Shown here piece by piece: positions 1,124 to 20,300 of a stretch of DNA of 44,525 nucleotides. The position numbers and the translations under genes are program-made. Location of the stretch: assembly GCA_964648765.1 (NCBI GenBank), contig CAZYLF010000001.1, positions 434,107-478,631 on the forward strand, in the 5' to 3' direction. The notes under the pieces were generated by a model. The model searched no databases and was not told where the DNA came from. It saw only the letters and a program-made list of their open reading frames with translations. This DNA comes from an uncultured Candidatus Saccharibacteria bacterium. Its GTDB lineage: Bacteria > Patescibacteriota > Minisyncoccia > Phycocordibacterales > JACOZG01. Positions within the stretch are counted from its first letter, which is position 1; each line of letters begins with the position of its first letter.

Positions 1124-1477
1124 TACTGGGATATTTTTCATTTCGGAGGATCATGTTTCAATCGAAGATGAAGGTTGAAATGAGATTGGTCGCGATATTG
1201 AACCATCCCAGACGCACCGATTATAGTGCAGTCCAGGAGAATACTGTGCCATCTGTGAACGGTCCTCCGGCAGCATTTGGACGGCCAGCTTGAATCGGTC
1301 CGTCTGGCCACACGGTCCGCGCAATACTTCAACTAGGATTGGCTTTTCATCGCGAAGTCTAATGATTTTGGGGCCGCTTCCCACCCTGAAAATTGGGCAT
1401 TTTGTCACAGAACCACAGATTGGCACTAGTGTAGGCGATTGGAACAAGCCGGGAAATACCATTTTGGAGCATTGACC

Positions 1478-2545
1478 ATGACGTTCACCGATGAACAACT
1501 GGCCGAACTGAATGCCATGTCGAAAGAAGTGGCTCGGTTAGAAGCGAAAGAGTTCTTTGATTACGAGTCAAGGCGACGGTCGATATTCGTTGCGATTTTC
1601 GCGGGTGCCAACATCGCAGTCGTGATAGGAGTTCTGATCACTTTTTACCTTGCGGGCATGAACGGAGTATTCGTCGGGTCACGCGAGCTCATTCGGCAGG
1701 TGGCAGAATCGGACATTGTAAGGGAGACAACAAAAGGAATTGCGGAAGCAACAAGAGAATCGTTTGTTGCTCTCGCTGAAATCAAACAGAAAATAAGGAG
1801 CGCCAATGAGGAAATGGCAGTAAACTCTGCAGCAGTTACTGCGCGCATTGATTCAACTGCTTCTGAGTTTCAGAATCGGTTCGATAAGATTCGTGGTACT
1901 CTTGTGGAAATTGAAACGAAGGCGGGTGACCCGGAACTCCTTAATCAGTTTAGGGTGGTCAGTGACTTGCTGTCTCGGCTCAAGAGTGACCAGCCCGATG
2001 ACCCGGCAAAGAAAATATTAGCGGCGATTAAATTGGCATCTAACATCGAAGATTTGATCCCACTTGCGACAATTGTGGCTTGGCACAGAAATGTTGATGT
2101 AGATAATCCAAAGCAAGTTACGCTGCAAAATGAGAATTGGGTATGGCTTGAATGTAGTGGCCAGACTATTCGTCGTCGCGATTATCCCGAGTTTTTTAGC
2201 AAGTTCGTTCGCGACGGCATAGATGAAACGCGACTGGACAATTTGAATGGAGACGGCAGATTCTTGCGCGGGTCCTCGAGGTCGGGATTATTGCAGCCTT
2301 TCAGTACTGCAATGCCGCTCGCGCCGTTCATTGTTACACCAGATGGCGAACACGATCATCTAATTGACAGAAGCGGACCGACTGGCAGACTGATCGGAAC
2401 CGCGGAGGGTGGCGGTGATGGAGGAGGAGACCAAAGCGACATCAAGACCCGGGCCGCAGGAAGGCATTCACACTCTATTATTGGAGGTGATTCCGAAACT
2501 CGCCCTGTGAACATGTCTGTAGTTTGGATCATTCGCGTTAAGTAG
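1478..2545 (+). CDS. Membrane-anchored coiled-coil protein with C-terminal phage tail-collar-like (MdpB-like) domain
   Basis: Track ORF 1439..2545; likely ATG at 1478 (MTFTDEQL). Hydrophobic segment 'IFVAIFAGANIAVVIGVLITFYLAG', then a long helical region. 'WLECSGQTIRRRDYPEFF..GDGRFLRG' and the terminal 'HSHS..ETRPVNMSVVWIIRVK' fit the tail-collar domain pattern. Confidence 0.55.
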   Translation: MTFTDEQLAELNAMSKEVARLEAKEFFDYESRRRSIFVAIFAGANIAVVIGVLITFYLAGMNGVFVGSRELIRQVAESDIVRETTKGIAEATRESFVALAEIKQKIRSANEEMAVNSAAVTARIDSTASEFQNRFDKIRGTLVEIETKAGDPELLNQFRVVSDLLSRLKSDQPDDPAKKILAAIKLASNIEDLIPLATIVAWHRNVDVDNPKQVTLQNENWVWLECSGQTIRRRDYPEFFSKFVRDGIDETRLDNLNGDGRFLRGSSRSGLLQPFSTAMPLAPFIVTPDGEHDHLIDRSGPTGRLIGTAEGGGDGGGDQSDIKTRAAGRHSHSIIGGDSETRPVNMSVVWIIRVK

Positions 2546-2630
2546 AATGTCAGCAGCAGATAAGAAGGCTTGGGGATCCTGGTAGCGACACAATCGACTT
2601 TGAGTCGCAAGACTGTGCGTTTCTCCGGGT

Positions 2631-2688
2631 ACGCCAAAGACGCCAGTCTTGACATCTGACCCTTATCGAGCCAGACCTCGAACTTTTG
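2631..2688. repeat. Direct repeat copy 1 (58 nt), upstream of the TIR-like cassette
   Basis: acgccaaagacgccagtcttgacatctgacccttatcgagccagacctcgaacttttg aligns with 4755-4810. By eye there are 5 mismatches and 2 one-nt indels over 58 columns. Identical blocks: tctgacccttatcgagc (17 nt) and agacctcgaacttt (14 nt). Contains a small hairpin TCGAG-N6-CTCGA. Confidence 0.8.
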
Positions 2689-3122
2689 AGTCATTAGCGC
2701 ATGATATCACACGCTGGTTAAGCGCCACCAGTCATGAGTGGCGTCAGCCCTTCGATCACCTCCTCAAGAAGATTCGTCCACCGCAGCCTGCACCTGTTTT
2801 GAAAATGCGGGGGTGGTACCAGACGAAGGCGGAAGAGTCGCGGGAAGATGGTGATCGAGAGGACTCGATGGCAGCGTAGCGCTGCGCGAATGGCGACCAA
2901 GACGCGGATTCTTGGCGGCAGCGTCAAGAATCTAACGTTCACGCTATGGACTCTCAGCCAATCAAATATTTTGAAGCCATTCGGCCGGTAGAGCCACTCT
3001 GGTTGAGCCCTCGGCAAGCCCTCGGCCCACCGTCTCAAACCCAACTTGACGATGAGCACGGGTTTTGGGAAAATTGAGGGAATGAAATTTGGAAAAGCTA
3101 GTTTGAGGCTCTGGAACGAGAA

Positions 3123-3602
3123 ATGACTTCGACTGCAAAATGGGATATTCCACCGAAGGCGAAGGTCTACGAAGCCCTCAGCGCAGTTGCTGATGGTCGT
3201 GTCACACTGGGTCAAGAATGCAAAGCAAAAGTCGTATCCTCATCTTTGGACAAGTCTTATGATGTGTCATGGTCTGATGATAAACGCGCTTTCTTTTCCA
3301 ACGACAATGCATCTTTCTGGCAAGGCTATCTCGGGTACCCAATAATTGCGGTACTCTTAAGTCTAAAGGTCATACCGTTCGATGAATCAATCGCAAAGGC
3401 TTTGGCCGGGATACCATGGAAGAAGCTGAATACGAAATTCAAGCGAGATTACGAAAAAGCAGTTGACCATGTCTTATCCAATCTCCAAACAGCCTCAGTA
3501 GCTCGCGAGGACATTGAGCAAGAGGTACAGCGAATCCATGAGGCCATTAAATGTTTAGAGCTAGAAAAATTTGGTGCAGGCAAGAAACGGCCGCCGATCT
3601 AA
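3123..3602 (+). CDS. Hypothetical protein (159 aa) with one hydrophobic segment; first gene of the TIR-like cassette
   Basis: Track ORF. Ends 25 nt before the next co-directional gene. Hydrophobic stretch 'GYLGYPIIAVLLSLKVIPF'. No family recognised. Confidence 0.55.
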   Translation: MTSTAKWDIPPKAKVYEALSAVADGRVTLGQECKAKVVSSSLDKSYDVSWSDDKRAFFSNDNASFWQGYLGYPIIAVLLSLKVIPFDESIAKALAGIPWKKLNTKFKRDYEKAVDHVLSNLQTASVAREDIEQEVQRIHEAIKCLELEKFGAGKKRPPI

Positions 3603-3627
3603 GCGAAAACCTGAAATTTAACTGAGG

Positions 3628-4647
3628 TTGAAACTGGTGCGTCCTAGAATTTTCTTGGCCTCTGCCACTCCCGACTTAGAAATTGCCGAGACTATTCAGG
3701 AAAATCTCGAAAGAGATTTTACCACTACGGTATGGAACCAGGGCGTTTTTACACCGTCGACCTATCCTCTTGAGTCATTAGAAAATGCATTAGCTCAAAA
3801 CGCTTTCGGTGTTTTCATCATGGCCCCGCATGATGTTATCAATTCGGGAAAGCGCAAGAAGGTGGTTGTACGCGATAACGTCTTGTTTGAACTCGGTATG
3901 TTTTTTGGACGGCATGGTCGCCACCGTTCATTTCTCATTTCCCCAAATACGTTTAAGAAAACAGACCTAGCGAGCGATTTACATGGGCTGACGCTCTGTC
4001 TTTATGATGCTGATCGTTTTGCAAAGGAGCCAGTCCCTGCAGTGTCTGTGGCATGTACACAGGTGCGGCGCGCCATCCGCAAGATGGAGAGTAGTCTAGC
4101 AGCCGATCCGGGCGCGTTACGTAATGACGTATTTCCACAGTTTAATGATACATTTGCGGAGTTGTTGAAGAGTGCACAATCATTGACGACATGTTTTATC
4201 CATTCCAGAAGATGGCGAGAAAACCATAACGACGCGATTAAGTCATTTCTATCACGTTCCGGCACATCGCTAACCGCCTTTCTACCGAACTTAACTGACA
4301 GAGAACTCATGCGACAATTTGTTCGTCATTTCGAGGACGGACCATTTATCGCAGGCTTTGTTAAGGACGCATATGTGTATTTTGCGAAGCTGAGTGCCGC
4401 CTATCCGGGCCAATTACAATTGCGATCCTATCGGCTGTATCCCACCTATTCATTTTACAAGTTTGACGATAAAGCCGTCATCGCCCATTATCCACTAAGT
4501 ACCATTAAGAAAGACGTACCCACTACGTTGATATCTATGTCTGGAACATTTGGAAGTTTTTTGGCGGCAGATCTGACTTGGCTAGAGAAACATGCTCATA
4601 AGCTGTCAAAAAAAGAAATTCAGGATCTAGTACCTAAACGTAAATGA
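3628..4647 (+). CDS. TIR-like nucleotide-binding domain protein (CAP12/Pycsar-effector type N-terminal domain) with unassigned ~170-aa C-terminal domain
   Basis: N-terminal ~130 aa 'RIFLASATPDL..FGVFIMAPHDV....VVVRDNVLFELGMFFGRHGRHRSFLISP' matches the hallmark 'fAivlltpDD...RdNVlfElG.f.G.lGr.rv' of the Pfam TIR-like/CAP12-PCTIR family. TTG start at 3628 after 'tgagg'; alternative GTG at 3637. Confidence 0.65.
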   Translation: MKLVRPRIFLASATPDLEIAETIQENLERDFTTTVWNQGVFTPSTYPLESLENALAQNAFGVFIMAPHDVINSGKRKKVVVRDNVLFELGMFFGRHGRHRSFLISPNTFKKTDLASDLHGLTLCLYDADRFAKEPVPAVSVACTQVRRAIRKMESSLAADPGALRNDVFPQFNDTFAELLKSAQSLTTCFIHSRRWRENHNDAIKSFLSRSGTSLTAFLPNLTDRELMRQFVRHFEDGPFIAGFVKDAYVYFAKLSAAYPGQLQLRSYRLYPTYSFYKFDDKAVIAHYPLSTIKKDVPTTLISMSGTFGSFLAADLTWLEKHAHKLSKKEIQDLVPKRK

Positions 4648-4754
4648 TGAAAGCTGGGTATCCCGTGAGCCTTCTTTATGCTCAAAGTTTTGACAACTTT
4701 ATCAAGTGCGACCATGTTTACGTTGATTTTACAAGGCTGTGATATTCTCCAAGC

Positions 4755-4810
4755 ACGCCAAAAACACCCATCTTGACTCTGACCCTTATCGAGCTAGACC
4801 TCGAACTTTG
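4755..4810. repeat. Direct repeat copy 2 (56 nt), downstream of the TIR-like cassette and abutting the IS66 end
   Basis: acgccaaaaacacccatcttgactctgacccttatcgagctagacctcgaactttg. Similarity to copy 1 stops exactly where the IS66 terminus (gtaaccgtcc..) begins at 4811. Confidence 0.8.
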
Positions 4811-4882
4811 TAACCGTCCGGCAAACCGCATGCCGGTTTTGGTGTGGTGACGTGGCGGGGACATGAAGGAATTGGCGGAAGG

Positions 4883-6472
4883 TCAGTTGGCTTTGAACCA
4901 GCGGTTGGGCAGGAGTGGTTCGAGTTCGTTGACCGGAGTGGCGGGGATTCGGGTCAGCACATAGCGCAGGTAAGCGAACGGATCAACCTTGTGTCGTTGG
5001 CAGGTGGCGATGAGACTGAAGAGCACGGCGGCCGTCACTCCGCCATTGTCGCTGCCGCAGAAGAGCCAGTTCTTGCGCCCCAGGGCCACGCGGCGCAGCG
5101 CGTTTTCGGCCGCGTTGTTGTCGATGTTCAAATCGCCGTCGGTGGTGTACACGTTCAACGCGTCCCACTGATTCAGCGCATAGGTAAACGCCTGGCCCAT
5201 CGGGCATTTGGGCAGCACCGGCCCACCGCGTGCCGCCTGCTGTGACTCCAGCCAGTCCTTGAACTGACGTAAACGCGGCACGGACTTTTCCTGGCGCGGA
5301 CGCTGACGGCCCGGTGCGGCAAGTTCCTTCGCTTCGATTTCCACGTCATAGAGCAGCCGGATGTAGGCCAGCGCCTGCGTGCTCACCGCAGCGTCCGCAT
5401 TCCGCGCATCGTAAAACTTGCGGCGAGCGTGCGCCCAGCACGCGACCTCGGTCACCTGCCCGCCCGCCGCACCCGCATAGATGCCGTCGTATCCGCCGAA
5501 CGCGTCGGCCTGCAAAAAGCCGCTCCAACCCGCAAGGAATTTTTGCGGACCGTCGCGATTACGCGCCGGGGTGTAGGTGAACACCGTGCAGGGATGGGAC
5601 CGGTCGCCCACATAGACCCAGAACCGGCCGGTGCGCGTGCGATCGAGCTTGCGATCCAGCACGTTCACCGGCGTGTCGTCGGTGTGGATAACCCGGGACT
5701 GCAGAACGTCCGTCACCATCCGGTCATACAGCGGCCGCAGCAGCGCCGCGCACTGCGCCGCCCAGTCGCACATCATTGATCGCGCAATCTGAATGCCGTG
5801 CCGGGTCAGGATGTGTTCGAGGCGATACAAGGGCAGGTGGTCTGAATATTTACTCACGATCACATACGCCAGCAGACCCGGTGCGGCCAGGCCCTTCGCG
5901 ATGGGTGCCGGGGGCCTGGTGGCGGTCACGATTTGCGGTCCGCCTTCCGCAGCCTGCGCTGCGCAGTCGCGGCAGGCGTATTTGAGCCGGATGTGTTCCA
6001 CCACCGTCAGCTTGGCCGGCACGTAATCGAGTAGTTCGCTGATCTCCTGTCCGATGACGTGCCGCGCCTTGCCGCAGCAGGGACAGGGCTTTTGCTCTTC
6101 CGGCAGGTCATGATAGAACTTCTCCCGCGGCAGGTCCGACGGCAGGCGTCTGCGTCCGTGACCGTTGGTGGAAGGTACTGCGGGCGCTGCGGCTGGTGCA
6201 GGCGCAGGCGTCGGCTCCGACGATGACGTTGGCGGGGCCAGTTGATTCAGGATCGCTTCGAACAGCAGCATATGCTGAGGATCGATCTTCTCCGCGGAGC
6301 GGCCGAACATCCGCCGCAGCAACTGCTGCAGTTGCTGCTGCAGGCTGTCGATCTCGCGATTCTTGATATGCAGTTGCTCAAGGAACTGCTGACGCTCGGC
6401 ACGCAGGAGCTCGACTTCCTGTCGAAGCTGTGCCAGTTCCGTGTCAGGCATGATCGGACCGTCCGTGGTCAT
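4883..6472 (-). CDS. tnpC: IS66-family transposase TnpC
   Basis: 529 aa. N-terminal leucine-zipper-like 'LRAERQQFLEQLHIKNREIDSLQQQLQQLLRRMFGRSAEK', zinc-finger 'CPCCG', and 'HTDDTPV'/'WAHARRKF'/'NAAENALR' motifs typical of IS66 TnpC. Confidence 0.9.
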   Translation of the reverse strand: MTTDGPIMPDTELAQLRQEVELLRAERQQFLEQLHIKNREIDSLQQQLQQLLRRMFGRSAEKIDPQHMLLFEAILNQLAPPTSSSEPTPAPAPAAAPAVPSTNGHGRRRLPSDLPREKFYHDLPEEQKPCPCCGKARHVIGQEISELLDYVPAKLTVVEHIRLKYACRDCAAQAAEGGPQIVTATRPPAPIAKGLAAPGLLAYVIVSKYSDHLPLYRLEHILTRHGIQIARSMMCDWAAQCAALLRPLYDRMVTDVLQSRVIHTDDTPVNVLDRKLDRTRTGRFWVYVGDRSHPCTVFTYTPARNRDGPQKFLAGWSGFLQADAFGGYDGIYAGAAGGQVTEVACWAHARRKFYDARNADAAVSTQALAYIRLLYDVEIEAKELAAPGRQRPRQEKSVPRLRQFKDWLESQQAARGGPVLPKCPMGQAFTYALNQWDALNVYTTDGDLNIDNNAAENALRRVALGRKNWLFCGSDNGGVTAAVLFSLIATCQRHKVDPFAYLRYVLTRIPATPVNELEPLLPNRWFKAN

Positions 6473-6532
6473 GCCTCCTGATACGCGCCAGGCGCGCGAA
6501 GGTTTGAAAAAACCTGGAATTTTTTGATATTT

Positions 6533-6910
6533 TTACGCCGTGAGCGTGAAGCGTTTGCGGCGCTTGATGCTGGTCAGATCGATGCCCGCCAGCAGCATGG
6601 CCAGCTCGCTGGCTTAAAGCTCAACGCTCGCGCCCGCCGACTTGGGCGTGGGCAGACGGAACGTGCCTTCTTCGAGCCGCTTGTACCAGATGGCGTACCC
6701 GTCGGTGTCCCAGTAGAGAATCTTGAGGCGATCCTTCCCGCGGCCAGTGAACAGGAACAAGTGTTTGGAGAGCGGATCAAACCCCAGCGACTCGCGGACC
6801 AGCGCCGCCAGAGAATCAAAGCCCTTGCGCATGTCGGTCGGAGTCGTGCACAGGTAAATACGCACGCCCGCGCCCGCGTCGAGTTCGCCCAAACTTGGCA
6901 GCTTCAACAT
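6533..6910 (-). pseudogene. tnpB: IS66 tnpB interrupted by an in-frame TAA (codon 99 of 125)
   Basis: Track ORF 6614..6910 reads '..VRIYLCTTPTDMRKGFDSLAALV..ILYWDTDGYAIWYKRLEEGTFRLP', typical of IS66 Orf2. After the TAA at 6614-6616 the same frame continues 'ASELAMLLAGIDLTSIKRRKRFTLTA*' (stop 6533-6535). That is the expected conserved TnpB C-terminus. Confidence 0.75.
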
Positions 6911-6951
6911 GCGGGCGCCTCCGCATGGCGGAAGTTCGTCGCACGCAGTAC

Positions 6952-7198
6952 GCCGAGCACGTCGGACAATGCCTGCCGATCCACCGGACCCACGCCAGTG
7001 GTGATGGTCCGCGCAGGAAGGCGGCCGTTGCCGACCACTTGCCGATGACCCTTCTCGTCCACGATGTGCTGGTGCGACTCCAGCCAGTCCGCCACTTCCG
7101 CTTCGATAGCCTAGCCCAGAGTCGCTGGGCGCCGCTTCGCAATACTTCGGTCAGCACGTCACCGGAATTCGCGCTCGGCATCGCCAGCGCAGTTGCCA
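6952..7198 (-). pseudogene. IS256 (Mutator)-family transposase N-terminal remnant with frameshift and stop
   Basis: 'MATALAMPSANSGDVLTEVLRSGAQRL' then, in a shifted frame, '*AIEAEVADWLESHQHIVDEKGHRQVVGNGRLPARTITTGVGPV'. Together these match the conserved N-terminus 'LTEVLReGArrLLaqAvEAEV..fL......e.G...vvrNG.lPeR.i.TG.GpV' of IS256-like transposases. Cut off at the IS66 boundary. Confidence 0.55.
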
Positions 7199-7562
7199 TA
7201 CTCTCTTCCATTCGGCGTACTCCTCTGCCCGTGTGGGGGGACGGTTTCGTTGCCTGAAAACGCACACCGAAAGTATGCGGCCTTCTTCAAAACGCTATCC
7301 ACAACTTTGGGTTATAACTCTGGAAGGAGAGGATGCCCGGCTCGAGGATTGACTCAGGCGCGCTGGAATAGAGCGCCTGAGTTACTTCTCAAGTGCGGCA
7401 TGTGGATAACGGGCGGCTGGGCCTTGCAGTCAAGAAACCAGTGACTGCATTGCGACGTCATGGCCCGCATCGTATAGACCCCAGCCAGCTTTCCAAGTAC
7501 TAGTTCCCTGCTTCAAACGGCAAGGGGCTTACGCCTCCGAGTGGTACTCACTAGCATAGTAT

Positions 7563-8279
7563 TTAGCCATCGAGATACTTCGCGAGACGAATGTTGGAAA
7601 TCCAGCCGAGCGCTCTTTCGTTAGGAGCACCATTGGGTGTAATAATAGCATCTTGAACACCTCTCGAACCTTCTAGGTTCATTTTTATTGAGCTTATGGG
7701 CGTGCTAGGTCCCGCAACGACAAAACCCGAGCCAAGTCCATATTCGATCCCGCCCGCTTTTTGCTGTGCGATAAAATCGGCAAAACTCATATCGATGTTG
7801 CCACCGCTGGACAAGAACTTATTAATGCTGCTTTCGTGGACTAGGTAAAGGACGACACCATCACGGTCAAGTAGTGGCAGTCGCGTGATCGATGCCGAAA
7901 ACCTTGCACAAAGTGTTGCTAGCGTCAGCGACGCAACACTAGCTGGATCAAGTGTAATATGGACAACTTCGGCCATCCGTCGCATTATGCGACCAGCGCT
8001 TACAGCTCCTCGCTGCTCCACTGAGAGGCGCTCCGCCATTTCTTGAATGCCACGATTCGCTGCCTCAAAGTTACGTCTTCCAAAATAGTGTGCCAATACA
8101 GTGCCGACCCAAGAGGTAACCACCGGGAGCGTTGCGTTAAATATTGGCATTGCATGGGATTTGTCACTTGCGACGGCATAGATCCCGAGTATAAGCATTA
8201 CTAAGAATGAAAAAAGCAGGATCTGGCCAGCAAGTTGGTCCTTTGAGCGAGAGCGATAGGGATTGCGCGAGCAAAACAT
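7563..8279 (-). CDS. Membrane protein with two N-terminal TM helices and a CBS-pair domain
   Basis: 238 aa. TM-like 'ILLFSFLVMLILGIYAV' and 'LPVVTSWVGTVLAHYF'. CBS-like 'RIMRRMAEVVHITLDP..ITRLPLLDRDGVVLYLVHESSINKFL' plus a second weaker copy. Confidence 0.6.
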   Translation of the reverse strand: MFCSRNPYRSRSKDQLAGQILLFSFLVMLILGIYAVASDKSHAMPIFNATLPVVTSWVGTVLAHYFGRRNFEAANRGIQEMAERLSVEQRGAVSAGRIMRRMAEVVHITLDPASVASLTLATLCARFSASITRLPLLDRDGVVLYLVHESSINKFLSSGGNIDMSFADFIAQQKAGGIEYGLGSGFVVAGPSTPISSIKMNLEGSRGVQDAIITPNGAPNERALGWISNIRLAKYLDG

Positions 8280-8288
8280 GGAAATTAG

Positions 8289-8597
8289 TCAATTAGTATT
8301 GAAGAGGAGCAATCTATCATTTTTATCGTTTTGCGCACTTTGTGCCGCTTGGCTGAACGCAATTCTTCCGCATTCGTTGTACGACACACTGCTATGCATG
8401 TCTCCATAAAAACACAATATGGTTAAATGTCTTAATGCCGTTTCGTACGGGATCGTGACAAAAAAGCCATTCGCAACAGCGAAATGCGGCAGACGCCATT
8501 TAGCCGGATCGTGCCACATGAACTCCGCATCGTCCACGTCCGTTTGTAACAACCTGAGACGGCCAACCGGCAGATCGTCTTCGATGTACTTTGGCAA
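8289..8597 (-). CDS. Hypothetical protein (102 aa), 9 nt upstream of the CBS-pair membrane protein
   Basis: Track ORF, co-directional and tightly spaced with 7563..8279. No family recognised. Confidence 0.45.
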   Translation of the reverse strand: MPKYIEDDLPVGRLRLLQTDVDDAEFMWHDPAKWRLPHFAVANGFFVTIPYETALRHLTILCFYGDMHSSVSYNECGRIAFSQAAQSAQNDKNDRLLLFNTN

Positions 8598-9196
8598 TTC
8601 CAGCTACACAACGGCCTCTAGATCAAGAGATTCTCGTACTTGGCATGCAGTACGGCAAGCTACGAGGGGACACTTGCGCTCATACGGCCTATTAAAATAG
8701 TCGACGTTTGGGTGAGGCCGAATTGAAGCATGAACCATTACGCAATTTCCCCACGATCCCCCCTTTGACGGAACCTTGTTCATAGATGCCTCTCGGTCGT
8801 GAAATCAAAATTGAACGGAGCATATAAGAATCCTTGACGTCTCGCACGTGGCTTGTTAAACTCCATTAGGGCTGATCTTTTCGCGAAGATGACGTTGCAC
8901 TCTGCTTTAAAGGGCAGCCCTCACCTATTTAAGTGGTGGGAGGTTTGCATTCTCGTGAGCCGCTTCTTGTTGGAACGAGGCACCGATTTGCGATCGGCCA
9001 GTCGTTGCGCACCAAGTCAACAATACGACAAAATATCTAGCTCATCATGCTTCTTGCGGTCGGTTCGATATCGATTGCTTCCTTCGACCAAATAGATCCC
9101 TGAGGCAGAAGTCTACCGCCCAATTAGCTGGCAGAATTGAGCTTGCTCAACGTGGAGTGAGCACATACTGCCAACTAATTGGTAAGGAGAAGACAA

Positions 9197-9505
9197 ATGG
9201 CACCCTGGCTAGCCGACGCATTGCAACTAGCACGGTCGAACTATTTCCCAGTTTCATCCTGCGACGAGGCGCTAAAAACGGTCGCTCTCTTGAGTGAGCG
9301 AGATCCAAAGCACATTTGCGCGCTGTCCAAGAAGCTACAGGTGTCGACTGGCCGATACGCTTCAGACATCCGACTGCTCTATCGCGATATCCCATCACAC
9401 GCGCGTGTGCCAGTGCACTTCATGTTTAATGTAGAGCGACTCAAGGTGATCGCCACCGTGAATAACGTGATGCACGTATTAATAAAGAATGCGATAATAG
9501 GGTAG
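9197..9505 (+). CDS. Hypothetical protein (102 aa)
   Basis: Track ORF 9179..9505. ATG at 9197 is preceded by AAGGAG (9184-9189). Followed by a 10-bp hairpin terminator at 9527-9555. Confidence 0.4.
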   Translation: MAPWLADALQLARSNYFPVSSCDEALKTVALLSERDPKHICALSKKLQVSTGRYASDIRLLYRDIPSHARVPVHFMFNVERLKVIATVNNVMHVLIKNAIIG

Positions 9506-9526
9506 AAGGAAGCGGGTAATGATCTA

Positions 9527-9555
9527 GGCGCAGCACAATGTGCTGCGCCTTTCTT
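9527..9555 (+). terminator. Rho-independent terminator-like hairpin
   Basis: GGCGCAGCAC-aat-GTGCTGCGCC (10-bp perfect stem) followed by tttctt. Confidence 0.5.
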
Positions 9556-9646
9556 GTGTAATCGGACCCCTCACGTAGCACACCCTCGCTAGAGGCATTT
9601 CAAAATATTGTCGATTGCGGGCTGGCAAGGTGGCGACTTTCCTGGC

Positions 9647-9860
9647 TCCGTCGGTGAACTGAAGACCGGCGATCACGTCGGTCACGAGCACTGAACCGTT
9701 CAGCACGCTCCATCAGTTTGAACATGGTCAGGCACGCGAGGCGCGAGTCCGATCCTTTGCTCTTGCGATGCCGCAGCCGCACGGTGGCGACAGTCATTCA
9801 ATCGAAGCTGGGAAGATATGGATCCAGTGTTTGGCACGTCGCGATTCATCGTCCCTCTAT
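9647..9860 (-). pseudogene. IS256 (Mutator)-family transposase C-terminal remnant, frameshifted
   Basis: Across shifted frames: 'KHWIHIFPASIE', 'TVATVRLRHRKSKGSDSRLACLTMFKLMERAER', 'LNGSVLVTDVIAGLQFTDG'. These match the conserved C-terminus '..HW.hlRTtNpIES.fATVR.R..ktKG..s....l.MvFKL...Ae.rWr.L.G...l..Vi.Gv.F.DG'. It abuts the stop of the 774-aa gene. Confidence 0.55.
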
Positions 9861-9879: not shown

Positions 9880-12204
9880 TCAGCTATGCGCCTGAATATC
9901 CTTCTCAATCCGATCGAGCTTGGCTTCCATGACTTTAACTACTGCAGTACTGGGAATGGACATTCCTGCCTGGTTCGCGCATGCGTATTCGATATGTGCC
10001 TTGGCAAGGGCGAAGTAGCGCTTTCTAGCCTCCTTATCAGCAATTTCACCTAGCCGCGCATATTGCCAATATGCGACACCGACAGTATCCCGCACTTCGG
10101 AACTGGAGTCATCTAGCTGTGGCTCCAAAACGGTGACTGCTGATCTAAAAGCCTCATTTGCAAAATCGGCCGAGTTCAGTCCCTCAGCGAACCAACCAAG
10201 AGCAGTGACATAGTTGTTGGTAATACGATAACGAACACTATTCGAGGTACTACCAATAGCCGGGCTATCATCATCTAACGGTGTTCTTTCAAGAAGCTGC
10301 ACAAAGGCGTGCGCTATTTGTTGCGCTTTTGCCAAGTCCGGCGTTTGCAGCTTCCAAGCAAGTGCATCTAACACTAATGTGTGACACTCTGTTAGAGGAT
10401 GATTGTGCGTATTCCGTCGCCGCAATCGCTCAGCTACTTTGATATACGTTCTCGGATCGGAGGGACGATCCCTGAGTATTCGGCGGTAGTCCACTAGGTT
10501 CGCAAGAAACTGTATTGCATCAGTATTCGCCACTCCGCTAGAGCTAGGCTCACTTTTCAATAGGACTTCCGCTACATCGAGCTTATCAAAGAGAATTAAT
10601 AGCAGCGTGCCCACGATGACCGCGTCCGCCGAAGACAGCTGGTACTCCTCCATTCCAAAAAGCGTGAGTAGTCCCATCAAACTCTTGCGCGCCGCATTTA
10701 AATGCTCAGATGTGATCTTGCTCGGATCTAGAGAACCTAGAGATCGGAGTGTACTTCGCACTTCCTCCACTTGGCCAAAGGTGGTGCGCAGCAAATACGG
10801 GAACTCCCGAATAAGGCCCGCATTACCCACCAGGAAAGACCGATCCACGACCGTCTCGATATATAATTTCAGTAACACATAAAGCGCGTTCTTAATCCCA
10901 GCCTGCACGTTTTGCTGCGCCGCCAGCAATTCAACGTCGAGCACACGGCTTTCTTCGGAACGCACGAGCTGGATGAGAGAGAGAGCATTTCGGATAACAT
11001 TGTCGGACCGGAGTTCGCTCGGTAGGAGAAGGGTTCGCTGTAGTGATAATGCGAGGTTGGCCCAACTGCCCAGCAGCTCTTCAATGGCCGACCAGTCAGA
11101 ACGGGTCGTAGGGGAAGGCGGCTTAGAGACTAAAGCCGCTGCATGCGGGGCAAACCACTTGTGATATTCGAGGCGGCGAATCAGTGCAGTTCGTGCCTGG
11201 CTATCGGCCGTAGATGTTGAGCCTGTCCAATGAGCGAGAAATAATACTATGCAAAACGGATGTCTGAGGAGTGACGTCTGCAGTTTTTGGCCCTTCACGG
11301 TTAGGGTTAATTCAAGTGCATTAGCGAAGGATGAAGCGGCGGGACGATAAAAGCGATGTGCGGATGTCAATAGGTAGACAACTTCCCGTTCACCGTGGCT
11401 TTGCAACCAGCTATTAAGCTGGGTGACTCGGAGGAGTGCCTTTGCGTCGCGTTCGCAGGTGCGATTTGTGCGCGGTGGTCTGCCTTCGTTAAGCTGCTCG
11501 CGATGTTGCGCGGTGCGGCTGACATGATCGTAAAGATTATCATAAAGTAGTTTATATTGGCGGTCGACGTTGTTGCGCCCGGTGGTATCCCACGCCGGGA
11601 GGAAGTGGTTTAGATCAGCGAAAGTGCGCCCAAAATCAATTACAAGTGGCTGTTGGTTACGTCGATAATTAAGCGCATGAGTTACACCAAGCGACACGAT
11701 AGCTGAAAACTCAGAGCGCAATAGATGGACCAGCTCTTCACGCTTAGCGGTAAACCAGCTGTCGTCTTCAGTCGTTGTAGCGTCGTATGCCGTTTTCAAC
11801 ACCGGGTACTCTGACTCTAGACGGAAAACTTCGCTGCGCAGTCGATTCAAATCAGTTTGTACGCCAGTAAGTTTCAGAAACGCCGCATGTTCCAAGAACT
11901 CCTCCATGTACTCGGGAAGCAAGATTGGCAATTCAAGGTCAGGCTTTGTTGTTAGGTCAAAGAGCAGGTACGCCATCGCAAATATACTCTCCAGCGCGGG
12001 AGCCGGCCCATTGGAATCCACCGGCCAAGGATGAAGAAAGTTATGAATTTCATTGAAGTCAATTGCAAAGCGGATTTTGTACCCCGCCTGTATTAGGTGC
12101 TGGTCGAATAGTAGGTCATTACAATGCTGTGCCGTCTTACCAAACCAATCCCGGAGGGCAAGCAATTGCCGGGGAGTGCTAGATGAATCATACGTTGGTG
12201 CCAT
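9880..12204 (-). CDS. Hypothetical 774-aa protein, third gene of an uncharacterised three-gene operon; helical/TPR-like C-terminal part
   Basis: Long uninterrupted ORF. ATG at 12204 lies 4 nt after the stop of the upstream gene. The C-terminal region '..AYWQYARLGEIADKEARKRYFALAKAHIEYA' looks TPR-like. No catalytic family recognised. Confidence 0.75.
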   Translation of the reverse strand: MAPTYDSSSTPRQLLALRDWFGKTAQHCNDLLFDQHLIQAGYKIRFAIDFNEIHNFLHPWPVDSNGPAPALESIFAMAYLLFDLTTKPDLELPILLPEYMEEFLEHAAFLKLTGVQTDLNRLRSEVFRLESEYPVLKTAYDATTTEDDSWFTAKREELVHLLRSEFSAIVSLGVTHALNYRRNQQPLVIDFGRTFADLNHFLPAWDTTGRNNVDRQYKLLYDNLYDHVSRTAQHREQLNEGRPPRTNRTCERDAKALLRVTQLNSWLQSHGEREVVYLLTSAHRFYRPAASSFANALELTLTVKGQKLQTSLLRHPFCIVLFLAHWTGSTSTADSQARTALIRRLEYHKWFAPHAAALVSKPPSPTTRSDWSAIEELLGSWANLALSLQRTLLLPSELRSDNVIRNALSLIQLVRSEESRVLDVELLAAQQNVQAGIKNALYVLLKLYIETVVDRSFLVGNAGLIREFPYLLRTTFGQVEEVRSTLRSLGSLDPSKITSEHLNAARKSLMGLLTLFGMEEYQLSSADAVIVGTLLLILFDKLDVAEVLLKSEPSSSGVANTDAIQFLANLVDYRRILRDRPSDPRTYIKVAERLRRRNTHNHPLTECHTLVLDALAWKLQTPDLAKAQQIAHAFVQLLERTPLDDDSPAIGSTSNSVRYRITNNYVTALGWFAEGLNSADFANEAFRSAVTVLEPQLDDSSSEVRDTVGVAYWQYARLGEIADKEARKRYFALAKAHIEYACANQAGMSIPSTAVVKVMEAKLDRIEKDIQAHS

Positions 12205-12208
12205 AAAT

Positions 12209-13075
12209 CTAACCCGTAGCAGCTTTACTCATTGCCCGAAGGCGCTCTGTGAGTTCTTGAGGTGACCAGGTAGAGGTGACTTTGGGATTTTGGCCTAGAG
12301 TGAAGCCGGCATCCCTTAAGAAACTGTTCCAGCTACTCGCTAGGGGAAGAGAACCTACTTCTTCACTGACTGCTCGCTCAAGGTGTCTCATGAACGACTT
12401 GAGATGACGAGTATTCCGAAGACGTTTTAGGAGTTGCCGAAAACCAGCGACAAGTTCTTCAGTTGCAGGACTACCCGAGAGCAAGACAACAGGAACGGCC
12501 TCAAGAAGTTCATGGAGTGACCATAGTGGGCCGAAAGCGCACCATACTCCAAGTGCTGAAATGGCGACTTCTAATATACGTTCGTCGTGAGCCCTTGAAT
12601 TATTTCGTAACATCGCGTGGCGGATTATCCACGGGCTTGTCCTCTCCCAATCATGCACAGTTGCGGCTACCGACCATTGCGCCTCACGCAAGAGCCTACG
12701 TTGCGAATCGACTGAATAATCAAAAGCCTCATGACATAGGAGATCATTAAAGCGCAAGAGGCCCCGATAGTCATTAATTGCCTGCGCAAAGAATAATAAT
12801 TCAGAACCAAATGCATCTGATTGGCGTTTGGGATGGTAAATGCCATATAGACTTGCGACTGCTTCTTTGATGGTGGCTTGAGTCATCTGATGGGCGATGG
12901 TTATTTCGGGACTACGGCCCTGAATGAGCTTGATCAACCGCAAATGGGCTAAGTCGCCTTGGCAAATGCATTCCGGTTCTGTACGATTGAATGTCAAAAG
13001 GCGCATGGTCCAAACCGAAAGCGCGGGCGGAGGGAGCTCTTGCAACTTATCGAGGAGACTGACTAGTTCAGTCAT
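12209..13075 (-). CDS. Hypothetical 288-aa protein, second gene of the three-gene operon
   Basis: Its start overlaps the stop of the upstream gene by 4 nt (ATGA at 13075-13072). Predicted mostly helical by eye. No family recognised. Confidence 0.7.
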   Translation of the reverse strand: MTELVSLLDKLQELPPPALSVWTMRLLTFNRTEPECICQGDLAHLRLIKLIQGRSPEITIAHQMTQATIKEAVASLYGIYHPKRQSDAFGSELLFFAQAINDYRGLLRFNDLLCHEAFDYSVDSQRRLLREAQWSVAATVHDWERTSPWIIRHAMLRNNSRAHDERILEVAISALGVWCAFGPLWSLHELLEAVPVVLLSGSPATEELVAGFRQLLKRLRNTRHLKSFMRHLERAVSEEVGSLPLASSWNSFLRDAGFTLGQNPKVTSTWSPQELTERLRAMSKAATG

Positions 13076-13986
13076 CGCATCCTCTGCTGTATTAAGCCCA
13101 ATAACAAGGGTTCAGATTCGCTTGGAGGGGCGATTCGTTCAGCCACTCCAAGTCGTTTAACACTCACAACTGCCTCCCGCAGTGACATCGAAGGATGGAC
13201 CCATTCTCGAACGCCATCGAATGCGGTAATTGGGGCCTCATGTGACAAATAAACTGTACGGCCACTTCTTGGTAATTCGACTAGGCCAGGCATGAAGTAC
13301 AAGAAGCCCTTTGAATCCCAGATCGAGGGGACGTAAAATTCCATTACACGCTCGGACAGCTCGATTTGCCAAATCCCCTCGAATGCGTCGTCAGGTACTC
13401 CAGGATGAAAAGGTCCAAAGAACGGCTGGCCAACCGCTCTCATTGTGTCCCAACCGCGGGTAACGGACGCTTCTGAAATCCCTAGCTTCTCGGTGTAGTC
13501 CGCGAGCTCTGCCGAATCTGCCACCCAAAAGTAGTTTCCGCCACTGCTGCGGAGTAGCGCCGCTGGGTCAAAATACCTCCAAGTCCAGCGATCACCGTCC
13601 CAAGAATTCTCGACCAAAAATTGGATGCTGTCGGCCATCGATTTGTTATTTGTCGGATCAACTGGCCGTCCATATTTATGTCTCCCTAGAGTCAACTCGT
13701 GCTTTACGCGAGGCAATAGGCAATGCTTAAAAAGCTGATGTGCGGTTCGAATCACGCAAAAATGAGAATTAGGAATCTCGCCAATTAAATATCCAGATGG
13801 GGAATCGAAGTGGCCTCCGATTGCTAAGAGTCCCTCACTAATTCGATCCGGGTCGGAATTGCAGTGTGTACATAGGCCATCAAAGTGTATTTTACGCCAT
13901 TCACGAGTATTGTCAAAGCGTTGATCCGCTTCGACCAAGGTCAGAAACAGACGTCCTCTGTTCGAAGCGGGCGAGTTAAAGGGCAA
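13072..13986 (-). CDS. Hypothetical 304-aa protein, first gene of the three-gene operon
   Basis: Track ORF with a ~350-bp upstream non-coding region. No family recognised. Confidence 0.7.
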   Translation of the reverse strand: MPFNSPASNRGRLFLTLVEADQRFDNTREWRKIHFDGLCTHCNSDPDRISEGLLAIGGHFDSPSGYLIGEIPNSHFCVIRTAHQLFKHCLLPRVKHELTLGRHKYGRPVDPTNNKSMADSIQFLVENSWDGDRWTWRYFDPAALLRSSGGNYFWVADSAELADYTEKLGISEASVTRGWDTMRAVGQPFFGPFHPGVPDDAFEGIWQIELSERVMEFYVPSIWDSKGFLYFMPGLVELPRSGRTVYLSHEAPITAFDGVREWVHPSMSLREAVVSVKRLGVAERIAPPSESEPLLLGLIQQRMR

Positions 13987-14691: not shown

Positions 14692-15180
14692 ATGCGGTTG
14701 CTCTGGTTATCGGGCGGGCAACGGAATTCTGCGATGCGTTTTAAACTGTCGCGGGATAAAGGTGAGCGAGAGGGCTTGGAGGCAGTGAAGGAACTCGGTG
14801 TCGATCAGGCTGACTTACTTAGCTGTCGGCGCTCATTTAGCAGGCTCTTTCGTCGCGGGGCTTACCCTCCGCTTCGCGGCACTGTGCTCAGCTTAGATCA
14901 GCGACGCCACGTTCTCTACTCCAAGGGAAGTGTCGATTTCTTTCAAACCTATCCTGGCTTGTACGTCCCTCTCCCCCTAGAGGTTGAAATTGAGACGGCA
15001 GAGCAGGCACCGGAGGCCCTATTACGGGAGATGCTCGCCTTGACCAAGATGAACTGGAACAGCACGCAGTTTGATCACGCGGAGCCGATTACGCTTGTTG
15101 CGGCGTCGCAAGTCGGCGATATTCTACGATACTTGGCGCCAGACGAATCAATCCAACCGCGTTACAGTTTCTATATGTAG
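14692..15180 (+). pseudogene. C-terminal PIWI-domain fragment of a prokaryotic Argonaute (remnant)
   Basis: 'EREGLEAVKELGVDQADLL..RLFRRGAYPPLRGTVLSLD..VLYSKG..FQTYPGLYVPLPLEV...LLREMLALTKMNWNSTQFDHAEPITLVAASQVGDIL....RYSFYM*' matches the last ~120 aa of pAgo PIWI domains, including the LTKMNWN block and an aromatic-rich C-terminus. Frames upstream (about 14200-14690) are broken by stops, with no MID or N-terminal PIWI recognisable. Confidence 0.55.
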
Positions 15181-18359: not shown

Positions 18360-20300
18360 TTATTTTTGGACAAGCGTGACCGTCCCAGCAATAAACAGTG
18401 TTGTTAAGATCCAGCCAAGTAATATATGTACCGTCAAGTAATGTCGGATGACGAATGAGCCTACAACACGCAATCGCATGTTCGTACCGCTTCCCTTGCT
18501 CGGAAGCCAATAATCTCCTTGTCGCAAGTTTATGACAGGAAGCAACTCATCTAGCGAATAGACGAGAGCGTTAAACGTTGGGTACCGTGACGAAATCCGT
18601 CGATCTCCAGTATTATCGTAAGCCCATCCATGGAGTGGGACAATCAAATCCTGCCGGGAACCTAACGAGAAAATAAGCCAGCCTAGTAACGTCACGCCAA
18701 CCATCCAAAAGACCGCCCACCAGGGCTTGTAACCATAAGCAATCGTCAAATAGAGCACTCTGTCCCAAAACGCCGCTGCCCCGGAGAGCTTCAGGTTGCC
18801 GGCTCGCTCAAGGGCCTTCTCTATACGGATTTCGCGCGCATCGTCGTCCTGGCCTTGTAGGTCAAGTACTGCCGCGAGCTGCTCGAAAGGTTGGGGCTGA
18901 AACGTCGACTGCCTCCTCAGCCAATCGAGTCGGGTGATGTAGTCTCTTGGCGCATTCTCATCAATTGCCATATACTTGAACCCGTCTAGATGCAGCGCCC
19001 CATGCGGAGGCCAGCTTGTTTGGTGATCCCAGAGCGTCCCAACTGCTGCCGACCTTAGATCAAGCGAACACTTTTGCGCCTCTACTACGCCGGCCCAGGT
19101 AAAAACGTGATCGACGAGTGCCCCGGCGAACGATACTCCGCCGTGCGCTTCGAACCCGTTCCGCATGAATGCCGATCCCGAAACAGCTAGTCCATCGGCA
19201 ACGAGGGCGCGCCCGGATCGGCCTGCCTCGAACTTCGCACCACTACAGTCAAGATCTCCGCCAATCTGAGATCCCAATAACGACATCTCACCATGAGAGG
19301 TGAAGCGAGCTTTCGTCGTTGCACTCACCTCTGTCGATCGCAGTAGGACGCTACCGCGAATCTCGCTTCGTGTCAGGTTCAGTGATCCACCATTGATCTG
19401 CCTAAAAACGGCTCCGGTACAGTCAATGCGACCCCCAATCTTACTGTCGGGAAACCGCACCTCACCGTCAACCTCAAACGGATAGACCAATGACATAGAT
19501 CCAGCGATATTCGCTCCGTCGCCGCTGAGCGCAGGATAATCGAGACATTGAAATGCCCCGCCGGTACAATCTAAATTTCCGCCGATTGTTGCCCGAAGAA
19601 ATCGTACTTGGCCTTCTGCGCGGAAACCGTTGCGTAGGAAGACGCTGCCCTTAACATGACTCCCTTCAGCGTTTAGCGCATCTCCGTTCGGGTTTAGCAG
19701 CTGTCCGCCGTCACAGTAAAGCAGGCCGCCGATTTGTGCCGTCGATAAGCGAACACCGCCGGATGAGATAAACCTACCGTTAAGAAAAACGTCATTCTCG
19801 ACCTGGAGACCGTCAGCGATCAGTCCTTTGATTTGCGAGTCTTGTAGGTACAATCCTCGAATCCGAGCTTTCAAAAAGTTCAGATCCTCGTCTACGCAGC
19901 AAGACAATAGTTGAATAGGGAACGGGATTGTCGCGTGCTCCAGATTGATAGCACCGACTATTCGTGCGCCGCGAACATGAATGCCGCGGCAATGAACCTT
20001 TGTAATCGCATCTCTATCAGTGCACAGCCATTCCAAGACTGCTCCATTAAGAACATCGGTCGTCCGGTCGCAAGCACTCTTTGCGGTAGTGTGATCGCCC
20101 ACTCCTTGATCAAAGTCGGCGACTGTTCCTGCACTTACGGCGCGAAGCAGTTTTGAAGTTGGTTCGGGGACTGACCCGAAACGTTGCTCGGCGAGGTCAA
20201 GAAGAGAAGCCAAGTTCGTCGTCTGTGCTTGGACTAATGCGGAGTGCGCAAAAACCGCGAGAACAATGCAGGACCGGCGCAGGAGGTAGCGAAAATCCAT
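18360..20300 (-). CDS. Secreted/membrane protein with ~20 degenerate 20-25-aa repeats (beta-helix-like) and C-terminal TM segments
   Basis: Track ORF 18360..20318 (GTG); ATG at 20300 gives the signal peptide 'MDFRYLLRRSCIVLAVFAHSALVQA'. Recurrent pattern '..G(S/N)(V/L)xLxxxxxxxGxVxxxxAxIGGxLxCxGAxF'. C-terminal hydrophobic segments 'WWAVFWMVGVTLLGWLIFSL' and 'ILLGWILTTLFIAGTVTLV'. Confidence 0.75.
   Translation of the reverse strand: MDFRYLLRRSCIVLAVFAHSALVQAQTTNLASLLDLAEQRFGSVPEPTSKLLRAVSAGTVADFDQGVGDHTTAKSACDRTTDVLNGAVLEWLCTDRDAITKVHCRGIHVRGARIVGAINLEHATIPFPIQLLSCCVDEDLNFLKARIRGLYLQDSQIKGLIADGLQVENDVFLNGRFISSGGVRLSTAQIGGLLYCDGGQLLNPNGDALNAEGSHVKGSVFLRNGFRAEGQVRFLRATIGGNLDCTGGAFQCLDYPALSGDGANIAGSMSLVYPFEVDGEVRFPDSKIGGRIDCTGAVFRQINGGSLNLTRSEIRGSVLLRSTEVSATTKARFTSHGEMSLLGSQIGGDLDCSGAKFEAGRSGRALVADGLAVSGSAFMRNGFEAHGGVSFAGALVDHVFTWAGVVEAQKCSLDLRSAAVGTLWDHQTSWPPHGALHLDGFKYMAIDENAPRDYITRLDWLRRQSTFQPQPFEQLAAVLDLQGQDDDAREIRIEKALERAGNLKLSGAAAFWDRVLYLTIAYGYKPWWAVFWMVGVTLLGWLIFSLGSRQDLIVPLHGWAYDNTGDRRISSRYPTFNALVYSLDELLPVINLRQGDYWLPSKGSGTNMRLRVVGSFVIRHYLTVHILLGWILTTLFIAGTVTLVQK

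Follow-up and report, generated by a model that had tools for sequence, protein, structure and literature searches.

What input could drive a TIR effector of the Cap12/PycTIR type that is not encoded next to a nucleotide cyclase? To our knowledge, all TIR NADases (NAD+ glycohydrolases) that have so far been described in this clade act downstream of a nucleotide cyclase, in CBASS or Pycsar. The question is raised by a gene pair in DNA of an uncultured Candidatus Saccharibacteria bacterium (GenBank assembly GCA_964648765.1, contig CAZYLF010000001.1, positions 434,107 to 478,631 of the forward strand; this whole stretch of 44,525 nt is called the window in the following). The first gene of the pair encodes a small protein of the family UCP014422 (Pfam PF27709), the second one a protein with an N-terminal TIR domain and a C-terminal domain of predicted phospholipase D (PLD)-like fold, here termed TIR–PLD. 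Related loci from public sequence data revealed that the adjacency of UCP014422 and TIR–PLD is non-random and that the partners of TIR–PLD are interchangeable. From this observed pairing we infer, with a probability of roughly 45%, a two-gene immune module of the abortive-infection type, in which a partner related to base excision repair (BER) would feed a PLD-like sensor that would in turn act on the TIR domain.

The TIR Domain and the Start of Its Gene

A first-pass annotation, made from the sequence alone, had described two open reading frames (ORFs) on the plus strand with a gap of 25 nt, and both are present (Table 1). The length of 339 aa given for the second protein is correct for the longest ORF, which starts with TTG at 3628. 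Both the public gene calls for an identical protein and the way in which homologues begin (MKPRVFIGSS...) make the GTG at 3637 the more likely start, and the probable product then has 336 aa. A GAGG box lies 8 nt before this GTG, the use of which results in an intergenic gap of 34 nt.

Residues 1–130 had been assigned to the TIR-like family of CAP12 and Pycsar effectors, and profile searches agree with this. The domain matched PF10137 (CAP12-PCTIR_TIR) with E=2e-27 and 96 bits (cut-off 24.7) over profile positions 1–118 of 119. The PADLOC models for the CBASS "Effector TIR" and for PycTIR were matched with E-values from 1e-30 to 1e-42, the PycTIR match (2e-30) being confined to the TIR part of the model (positions 151–286 of 288). 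A profile of the TIR family found the solved structures of Cap12 (9lmq, E=8e-36, and also 7un8) and of PycTIR (8jsj, E=1e-33), with the motif RDNVxFE(L/F)G in register in both. The glutamate of the FELG motif, already noted as conserved in the first-pass annotation, is E88 (codon 3889–3891); like R82, N84 and D69 it is invariant in 40 full-length homologues. NCBIfam Cap12 models matched the TIR at the domain level only (equivalogs 72–85 bits versus a cut-off of 450 bits). Because the full-length Cap12 equivalogs stay far below threshold, the TIR is by its sequence of the Cap12/PycTIR type, yet the protein itself is not Cap12. ThsB models of PADLOC did not match the TIR–PLD protein. All characterised relatives within this TIR clade that we know of are NAD+-depleting immune effectors, and by analogy TIR–PLD is a probable NAD+ glycohydrolase.

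Pairing of TIR–PLD with Interchangeable Partners

TIR–PLD genes were sampled regardless of their partner from the homologue list, a metagenome scan and long contigs. The metagenome scan gave full-length loci in 5 of 80 cases, and the synteny counts rest on 13 independent loci. In eight of these (the window, L001, L090, L091, L092, L170, L171 and L173) a UCP014422 gene is located directly upstream of TIR–PLD on the same strand. An Fpg/Nei homologue is adjacent in four loci, about a third: downstream, with an overlap or a distance of 3–15 nt, in L005, L093 and L094, and upstream in L172. The gene pair of L005 is located at 8001–9777 and comes from Methylomonas sp. 11b. A single locus (L160) has neither partner. 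The UCP014422 and TIR–PLD genes are separated by 5–34 nt or overlap by start and stop codon, except in L170, with 104 nt between the genes as called. The same order and strand were found in bacteria, candidate phyla radiation (CPR) bacteria and DPANN archaea. The two-gene pairing that had been proposed from this one locus is thus found elsewhere with UCP014422 upstream of TIR–PLD; what does not hold is a fixed partner, and a more fitting description of the unit is TIR–PLD with a partner of the DNA-repair type. The TIR–PLD family as a whole comprises about 90 clusters in 5.8 billion proteins, with a patchy distribution over bacteria, CPR and DPANN.

Several further counts bear on this pairing. 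None of about 40 loci with a standalone PLD-like gene had an adjacent co-oriented UCP014422 gene (in L131 a convergent one lies just downstream), and a core of UCP014422 and standalone PLD-like protein with an optional TIR was rejected on this basis. No UCP014422 gene was seen near TIRs of other architectures (0 of 32 loci). Among 80 species-level genomes with UCP014422, four contain TIR–PLD (an Aenigmatarchaeote, Rhizomicrobium, and members of the Cloacimonadota and Ignavibacteriaceae), always immediately downstream of UCP014422. About 95% of the UCP014422 occurrences are without any link to a TIR. In the tree of TIR–PLD proteins, L091 with a UCP014422 partner and L172 with an Fpg/Nei partner are sisters; partners were therefore exchanged.

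The TIR-linked members of UCP014422 are scattered across the tree of this family (neighbour joining of short proteins, with low resolution), and a dedicated TIR-linked subfamily was rejected on this basis. The scatter weighs against a sensing role of the partner in so far as a model of guarding or recruitment fits it as well. According to that model the partner would silence the TIR–PLD NADase, similar to an antitoxin, and a Ugi-like phage inhibitor or the loss of the partner would free the toxin. The tight coupling with the small gene first (apart from L170) would agree with this, as would the use of ordinary, scattered UCP014422 members, as if TIR–PLD monitored a resident host factor, and the interchange of two unrelated BER-type partners. 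We nevertheless regard it as rather unlikely: the Fpg/Nei partner can be encoded upstream or downstream of TIR–PLD, the partners keep their catalytic residues, and a physical interaction of the partner with TIR–PLD is putative. Moreover, the PLD-like domain has a conserved arginine-rich pocket, for which one would expect a small molecule or a nucleic acid as ligand and not a protein partner only.

The Two Partner Families

Affiliation of the alternative partner with Fpg/Nei is clear from its matches to PF01149 and PF06831, both above cut-off, and to a Lactococcus Fpg (E=7e-26). The N-terminal residues M1-P2-E3-L4-P5 and K58 are invariant in the four proteins, which includes the catalytic P2/E3 and K58, and the H2TH motif is kept (GIGNAYADEILW). 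No cysteines are present at the aligned positions of the C-terminal Cys4 zinc finger. The partner possibly carries a zincless finger, as it occurs in some Nei-like enzymes.

The 159-aa protein of the window had been regarded as belonging to no recognised family, and its hydrophobic segment implied a membrane protein; neither view can be kept. This protein and all 119 other homologues listed carry a precomputed PF27709 label, and the homologues listed share 50–60% identity over more than 86% of the length. Hmmscan of the 159-aa protein remained empty because PF27709 is newer than the Pfam copy that was scanned; NCBIfam and PADLOC models did not match UCP014422. An exhaustive profile search resulted in 520 clusters at 50% identity, nearly all of about 150–165 aa. 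The family is strongly conserved, with a mean column identity of 55% and 25 invariant positions, among them K14, E17, R26, S39, S40, N60, D61, W99, N103 and Y110; a block SNDNASxWQGYxGYPIIAV and a basic C-terminal tail are also conserved. AlphaFold2 (AF2) predicted a compact alpha+beta fold (pLDDT 91.8). The supposed hydrophobic segment (residues 68–86, Kyte-Doolittle 1.6) corresponds to the invariant GYPIIAV core and forms short helices inside this predicted fold. The globular model together with the invariant core segment led us to discard the membrane-protein reading in favour of a soluble protein, and a membrane role is, as judged from the prediction, unlikely.

Searches with the predicted UCP014422 fold gave no significant match in PDB (best E=1.4) or BFVD (best E=0.16). 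Weak matches to SWIM domains (E~0.6–1.5), with a pattern that resembles a Cys-less SWIM, are considered a lead only. When both proteins of the pair were compared to PDB by sequence, the TIR domain alone was matched, and UCP014422 produced noise (E>0.1).

Gene fusions and some neighbourhoods point to DNA repair or replication. In L069 (8001–10136), L086, L088 and P0291, a family-A DNA polymerase (Pol A) carries UCP014422 as its N-terminal part. These fusions occur in Lentisphaeria and in metagenome-assembled genomes from gut, and the gene for the NAD-dependent ligase (LigA) directly follows. Within the fusion proteins, UCP014422 occupies the position that the 5′ nuclease usually has in Pol I. 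In Anaerolineae, the UCP014422 gene is located between the genes for cytidine deaminase and RecO. P0346 (378 aa) is a fusion of UCP014422 to a PF08713 "DNA_alkylation" domain, the HEAT-repeat glycosylase domain of the AlkC/AlkD type, and the operon of L091 also holds an HhH-GPD homologue and a methyltransferase. These connections make a tie of UCP014422 to DNA repair or replication suggestive, not proven. A link to DNA methyltransferases was considered as well and was dropped; they occur in L001, L091 and two to three control loci and are not tightly linked.

The C-Terminal PLD-Like Domain

The C-terminal domain of the effector had been left unassigned in the first-pass annotation. At the level of sequence profiles this stands: the region of about 180 aa had no Pfam match even at E<=1, neither to PLDc nor to any PLD-nuclease profile, and no match in NCBIfam or PADLOC. 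It does not stand at the level of the fold, which is confidently predicted. The AF2 model, built from 41 sequences (pLDDT 92.9, pTM 0.88), gave 36 Foldseek matches in PDB at E<=1e-3 (TMq 0.48–0.60), and essentially all of them are members of the PLD superfamily or TrmB effector domains. Closest are the effector domains of TrmBL2 and TrmB, which are of a ligand-binding type (1e-7 to 7e-6), followed by the PLD nuclease SauUSI, phosphatidylserine synthase PssA, vaccinia F13, PLD3, bacterial PLDs and BfiI; values for SauUSI, PLD3 and BfiI range from 2e-5 to 7e-3. TIR–PLD shares the fold with TrmB/TrmBL2 and with PLD enzymes (Nuc, BfiI, SauUSI, PLD3, PssA; Foldseek 1e-7 to 1e-4, TM 0.5–0.6), but it has no detectable sequence similarity to them and lacks the HKD motif, having IHSRRWRE instead.

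Within IHSRRWRE, H192-x-R194-x-W196-R197-E198 is invariant (His codon 4201–4203). This arginine-rich motif sits after strand 2 of the domain. P220, F235, D237, P272, Y274, Y277, D280, Y288, F311 and D315 are further invariant residues. The canonical motif HxK(x)4D(x)6GSxN is missing, and no HxK(x)4D is present anywhere in the C-terminal domain. On the predicted topology, T273-Y-S275-F-Y-K-F-D280 would be the equivalent of the HKD hairpin, with the structural Asp alone retained. By its model the domain is a non-canonical PLD fold, and in analogy to TrmB it is probably ligand-binding.

Alternatively, the PLD-like domain could be a nuclease that cuts DNA at abasic sites or nicks made by the partner, with the TIR as a second or regulatory activity. 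The PLD nucleases among the Foldseek matches are in line with such a dual effector, the invariant cluster H192/R194/R197/E198 could be catalytic, and the partners belong to, or are associated with, families of glycosylases that create abasic sites. We consider this quite improbable, since the HxK(x)4D hairpin reads T-x-S(x)4D in TIR–PLD (in the inferred register), the TrmB/TrmBL2 domains, which match best in structure, are non-catalytic, and the profile searches at E<=1 did not recover a PLDc or PLD-nuclease family.

The domain also exists on its own. Free-standing PLD-like proteins of about 190 aa gave several hundred matches, mainly from Gemmatimonadota-like soil metagenomes, with 43–46% identity to the domain of the window and with the same invariant residues. 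In L006–L009 such a gene directly follows a gene for glutamate dehydrogenase. In L106 (about 3960–6580), L119, L123, L130 and L138 it is translationally coupled by an ATGA overlap to an upstream gene for a protein of about 687 aa, for which no Pfam match was obtained.

Neighbourhood of TIR–PLD Loci

The sampled TIR–PLD genes have neighbours known from defence or mobile DNA. The Methylomonas locus adjoins a type I restriction-modification (R-M) system and Kiwa, a Minisyncoccota locus adjoins NspV R-M together with genes for an integrase, a resolvase and TraG, and a further TIR–PLD locus is next to a helicase, HNH, DUF3644 and a resolvase. PADLOC analysis of 94 neighbours from 14 TIR–PLD loci additionally revealed ThsB, PDC-S02, PDC-S19, PDC-M50B/51B, mad2 and VakA. 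The control, 91 neighbours of 11 loci with UCP014422 only, mainly gave generic matches of the sigma54-activator type, together with DNA-methyltransferase matches, PDC-M72A and an ankyrin model. R-M, Kiwa, prokaryotic Argonaute (pAgo) with SIR2, ThsB and integrases thus accompany TIR–PLD, in a comparison that is qualitative.

In L160 (7135–10144), the locus with neither partner, TIR–PLD is followed by a Piwi-domain protein (PADLOC pAgo_II) and SIR2_2, and a Phd/ParE-like pair precedes it. Two of the loci with UCP014422 have genes of nucleotide metabolism nearby on the minus strand, a nucleoside 2-deoxyribosyltransferase and a thymidylate kinase in L170 (6233–7655) and a dCTP-deaminase-family protein adjoining the module in L173 (6244–7476). 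These may be separate defence genes acting by nucleotide depletion.

The pair may also have no role in immunity and represent a housekeeping or stress link between BER and NAD+ metabolism (such as a turnover of NAD+ in response to damage, or regulation of the NAD-dependent ligase) that is merely carried on mobile DNA. UCP014422 is widespread in non-defence contexts and has Pol A and the NAD-dependent ligase as neighbours, standalone PLD-like proteins are found in metabolic neighbourhoods, and the surroundings of L172 are not those of a defence locus. We judge this explanation highly improbable, considering that TIR–PLD is rare, patchy and scattered over phyla, that its loci are flanked by integrases, resolvases, insertion sequence (IS) elements, R-M, Kiwa, pAgo and ThsB, and that, by established knowledge, the characterised members of the TIR clade are immune effectors throughout.

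Comparison with Known Defence Systems

As a whole, the module was not matched by any PADLOC system, and among named systems NCBIfam and the literature gave no match either. Literature on UCP014422, on PF10137, on TIR combined with H2TH/Fpg and on glycosylase-triggered abortive infection did not describe the module, and a glycosylase coupled to an NADase effector was not found described. The module is apparently undescribed and rare. It is best described as a probable TIR NADase effector with a fused putative sensor, in which the sensor fold and the class of partner are new.

With the CBASS effectors Cap12 (TIR-STING) and TIR-SAVED it has in common the PF10137 clade, the motif RDNVxFE(L/F)G and a layout in which a sensor at the C-terminus of the TIR NADase would govern its activation. 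Unlike in CBASS, no CD-NTase is adjacent in the inspected loci, the C-terminal domain has a PLD-superfamily fold and is not STING or SAVED, and the partner is a DNA-repair-type protein and not a nucleotide cyclase. The claim that the window has no cyclase, CD-NTase, SIR2 or SLOG partner held up: PADLOC models for CD-NTase, cyclase, SLOG and SIR2 had no match in eight ORFs of the window (1439–2545, 7563–8279, 9880–12204, 12209–13075, 13072–13986, 14692–15180, 18360–20318 and 20597–21379), and the gene tables of related TIR–PLD loci listed no cyclase. PycTIR of Pycsar shares the TIR clade (8jsj and the PADLOC PycTIR model, see above). It has an N-terminal cNMP-binding domain (cNMP, cyclic nucleotide monophosphate) and a pyrimidine cyclase as partner, whereas the additional domain of TIR–PLD is C-terminal and PLD-like, with neither a cyclase nor a cNMP-binding domain.

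Two-gene operons with a TIR in defence islands are also a feature of Thoeris, including its new types V–XI. The TIR of Thoeris belongs to another clade, though, TIR–PLD has no match to ThsB, and UCP014422 is unlike any listed effector and mostly free of TIRs. One could still assume that TIR–PLD is a sensing, signal-producing TIR of the ThsB type and UCP014422 a new small effector that responds to an ADP-ribose-derived (ADPR) signal. According to a systematic survey from 2025 (bioRxiv 10.64898/2025.12.03.692087), operons that pair a TIR gene with one of many different effector genes, often of uncharacterised type, are common, and the invariant residues of UCP014422 form an aromatic and polar, pocket-like set. 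Of all the explanations considered here, this one appears to us the least probable. The TIR lies in the NAD+-depleting clade (PF10137, Cap12/PycTIR) and has no ThsB model match; a protein that is TIR-free in about 95% of cases, is fused to Pol A or AlkD-like domains and can be replaced by Fpg/Nei does not resemble a cell-killing effector. As far as the searched portions of its text and supplements go, the same survey (bioRxiv 10.64898/2025.12.03.692087) mentions neither a glycosylase-paired variant nor the PLD-like domain, and it excludes PF10137-clade TIRs that occur in a CBASS or Pycsar context.

A conceptual likeness exists to systems that are triggered by modified bases or by breakdown products of nucleic acids. 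Brig1 is a defence based on a DNA glycosylase. Kongming uses dITP signalling (bioRxiv 10.1101/2024.12.20.629578), and PUA-Cal-HAD senses m6-dAMP (PMC12871103). None of the three joins a BER-type protein to TIR–PLD, and they have no sequence kinship to UCP014422.

A Model for the Module

Cap12 and PycTIR are activated when a fused sensor (STING, SAVED or a cNMP-binding domain) binds its ligand, which leads to oligomerisation. Because of the analogy to these sensor domains of the closest TIR relatives, we assign a putative sensor role to the PLD-like domain. In the model that we propose, the BER-type partner, UCP014422 or Fpg/Nei, would engage abnormal or foreign DNA, for example modified or damaged bases. 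The PLD-like domain, as sensor and oligomerisation domain, would then read the product of the partner, its complex with DNA or a perturbed state of it, such as that caused by a phage inhibitor. Its activation would lead to assembly of the TIR domains and to depletion of NAD+, by which phage replication would be stopped. The model thus presumes cleavage of NAD+ by the TIR, sensing by the PLD-like domain, the kind of trigger and protection against phage. A more specific version, in which immunity would be coupled to base excision itself, is doubtful in our estimate. The glycosylase-type partner would here excise or engage a modified or damaged base specific to the phage, and the released base, abasic DNA or the enzyme–DNA complex would be the ligand that is bound by the TrmB-like PLD fold and so activates the TIR NADase.

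Besides the scatter of TIR-linked UCP014422 proteins, several observations weigh against the proposed model. Most UCP014422 loci are heterogeneous, with zinc-dependent alcohol dehydrogenase (Zn-ADH), sigma54 regulators, ferredoxins or a Thermoleophilia protein as neighbours. The repair role of UCP014422, a protein with no structural relative, is deduced from the company that it keeps in a few fusions and gene neighbourhoods and is suggestive. Standalone relatives of the PLD-like domain occur in non-defence contexts, as in the loci with glutamate dehydrogenase, and the loss of HKD is read from the topology of the model and not from superposed structures. The contrast in defence neighbourhoods between TIR–PLD and UCP014422-only loci is a qualitative one and not a statistical enrichment, and no obvious defence island surrounds L172.

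Surroundings of the Gene Pair in the Window

The features of the locus are summarised in Table 1. Four sites in all match a sigma70-like promoter, compared to 2.9 expected from shuffled sequences, so that the promoter-like site upstream of the UCP014422 gene is a weak prediction. No terminator was found between the two genes.

Table 1. Features of the gene pair and its immediate surroundings (positions within the window).
Feature	Position	Strand	Remarks
Direct repeat, left copy, ~79 nt	2608–2686	+	local alignment; 32-nt core 2655–2686
Promoter-like site, TTGACG-17-GAAAAT with TG	3046–3074	+	consensus match, ~50 nt upstream of the UCP014422 gene
UCP014422 (Pfam PF27709) gene	3123–3602	+	ATG start, 159 aa; proposed DNA-repair-type partner or sensor
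TIR–PLD-like effector gene, longest ORF	3628–4647	+	TTG start, 339 aa
TIR–PLD-like effector gene, probable extent	3637–4647	+	GTG start, 336 aa
CAP12/PycTIR-type TIR domain, residues 7–127	3646–4008	+	PF10137 profile match
PLD-superfamily-fold domain, residues ~161–339	4108–4644	+	predicted, AF2 and Foldseek
Direct repeat, right copy, ~79 nt	4732–4809	+	32-nt core 4778–4809; IS66 end abuts directly
IS66-family insertion sequence	4810–7300	−	ends approximate; context, outside the module

The pair had been described as lying in a mobile, repeat-bracketed setting next to IS elements, and this description proved accurate. The direct repeat flanks a 2.1-kb cassette that holds both genes. The two copies of its 32-nt core are 97% identical and unique within the window, and none of 100 shuffled sequences gave such a match. 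On the minus strand, the left copy corresponds to the first ~26 codons of ORF 2356–2694 (MTQKFEVWLDKGQ...); in the right copy a stop codon closes the frame of this ORF, and the copy is cut by the IS66 end. A target duplication of IS66 was rejected as origin of the repeat, which is too long for this, and the sequence past the IS does not continue it. The repeat may be an att-like site or a duplicated 5′ end of a gene. The adjacent IS66-family element encodes the transposase TnpC (4883–6472) and TnpB (6614–6910), and its GC content is 62–65%, compared to about 47% for the module.

A tRNA-Ala(CGC) gene (23279–23352, plus strand) marks a break in composition. To its left the GC content is about 50%, with an IS and orphan genes; to its right it is 38–45%, with strongly positive GC skew, and core genes are present (Tag 24172–24744, Fmt 34657–35496, PriA-like 35969–37873). 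Since the tRNA gene parts the IS-bearing side from this core, the data suggest that the module resides in a tRNA-flanked genomic island.

The same island side contains other genes of interest. The first-pass annotation had listed Argonaute among the absent partners. An ORF of 162 aa (14692–15180, plus strand) matches only the C-terminal PIWI part of class-I pAgos (PADLOC pAgo_I, E=9e-51, profile positions 318–455 of 455). This apparent remnant of a pAgo, either truncated or fragmented, lies at a distance of about 10 kb and is not adjacent to the module. Between IS66 and this fragment, three densely packed co-directional ORFs of 774, 288 and 304 aa on the minus strand (9880–13986), which matched neither Pfam nor PADLOC, may be another uncharacterised system carried by the island. 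On sister contigs of the same organism, a gene combining DUF1883 with TIR/TIR_2 (L174, 1–563, minus strand) was seen about 5 kb to the left of the module; it is a second, different TIR gene of the island, beyond the left edge of the window.

On the other side of the tRNA gene, four copies of a 59–83-nt unit were noticed at 30977–33801, at distances of about 850–970 nt and between ORFs of ~230–280 aa. The unit consists of a GC hairpin and a T-run followed by TTGAC, resembling a terminator plus promoter, and the region gives the impression of paralogous single-gene units arranged in tandem.

Significance

The locus presents a TIR effector chassis of the Cap12/PycTIR type that is wired to a different input, namely a PLD-fold domain and a DNA-repair-type partner that can be exchanged. 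Should the module protect cells from phage, BER chemistry would be linked to immunity by NAD+ depletion, and a function would be found for two orphan families, UCP014422/PF27709 and the PLD-like domain with the IHSRRWRE motif. With its 1.5 kb it would then be a small, easily cloned system for studying how foreign DNA is discriminated from self. Signalling coupled to base excision, if it exists, would represent a new principle of sensing, and UCP014422 would be a new family that recognises DNA lesions, possibly a glycosylase, with a fold that is not represented in PDB. Independent of the question of defence, the fusions to Pol A and to an AlkD-type domain make UCP014422 a candidate for a new DNA-repair factor.

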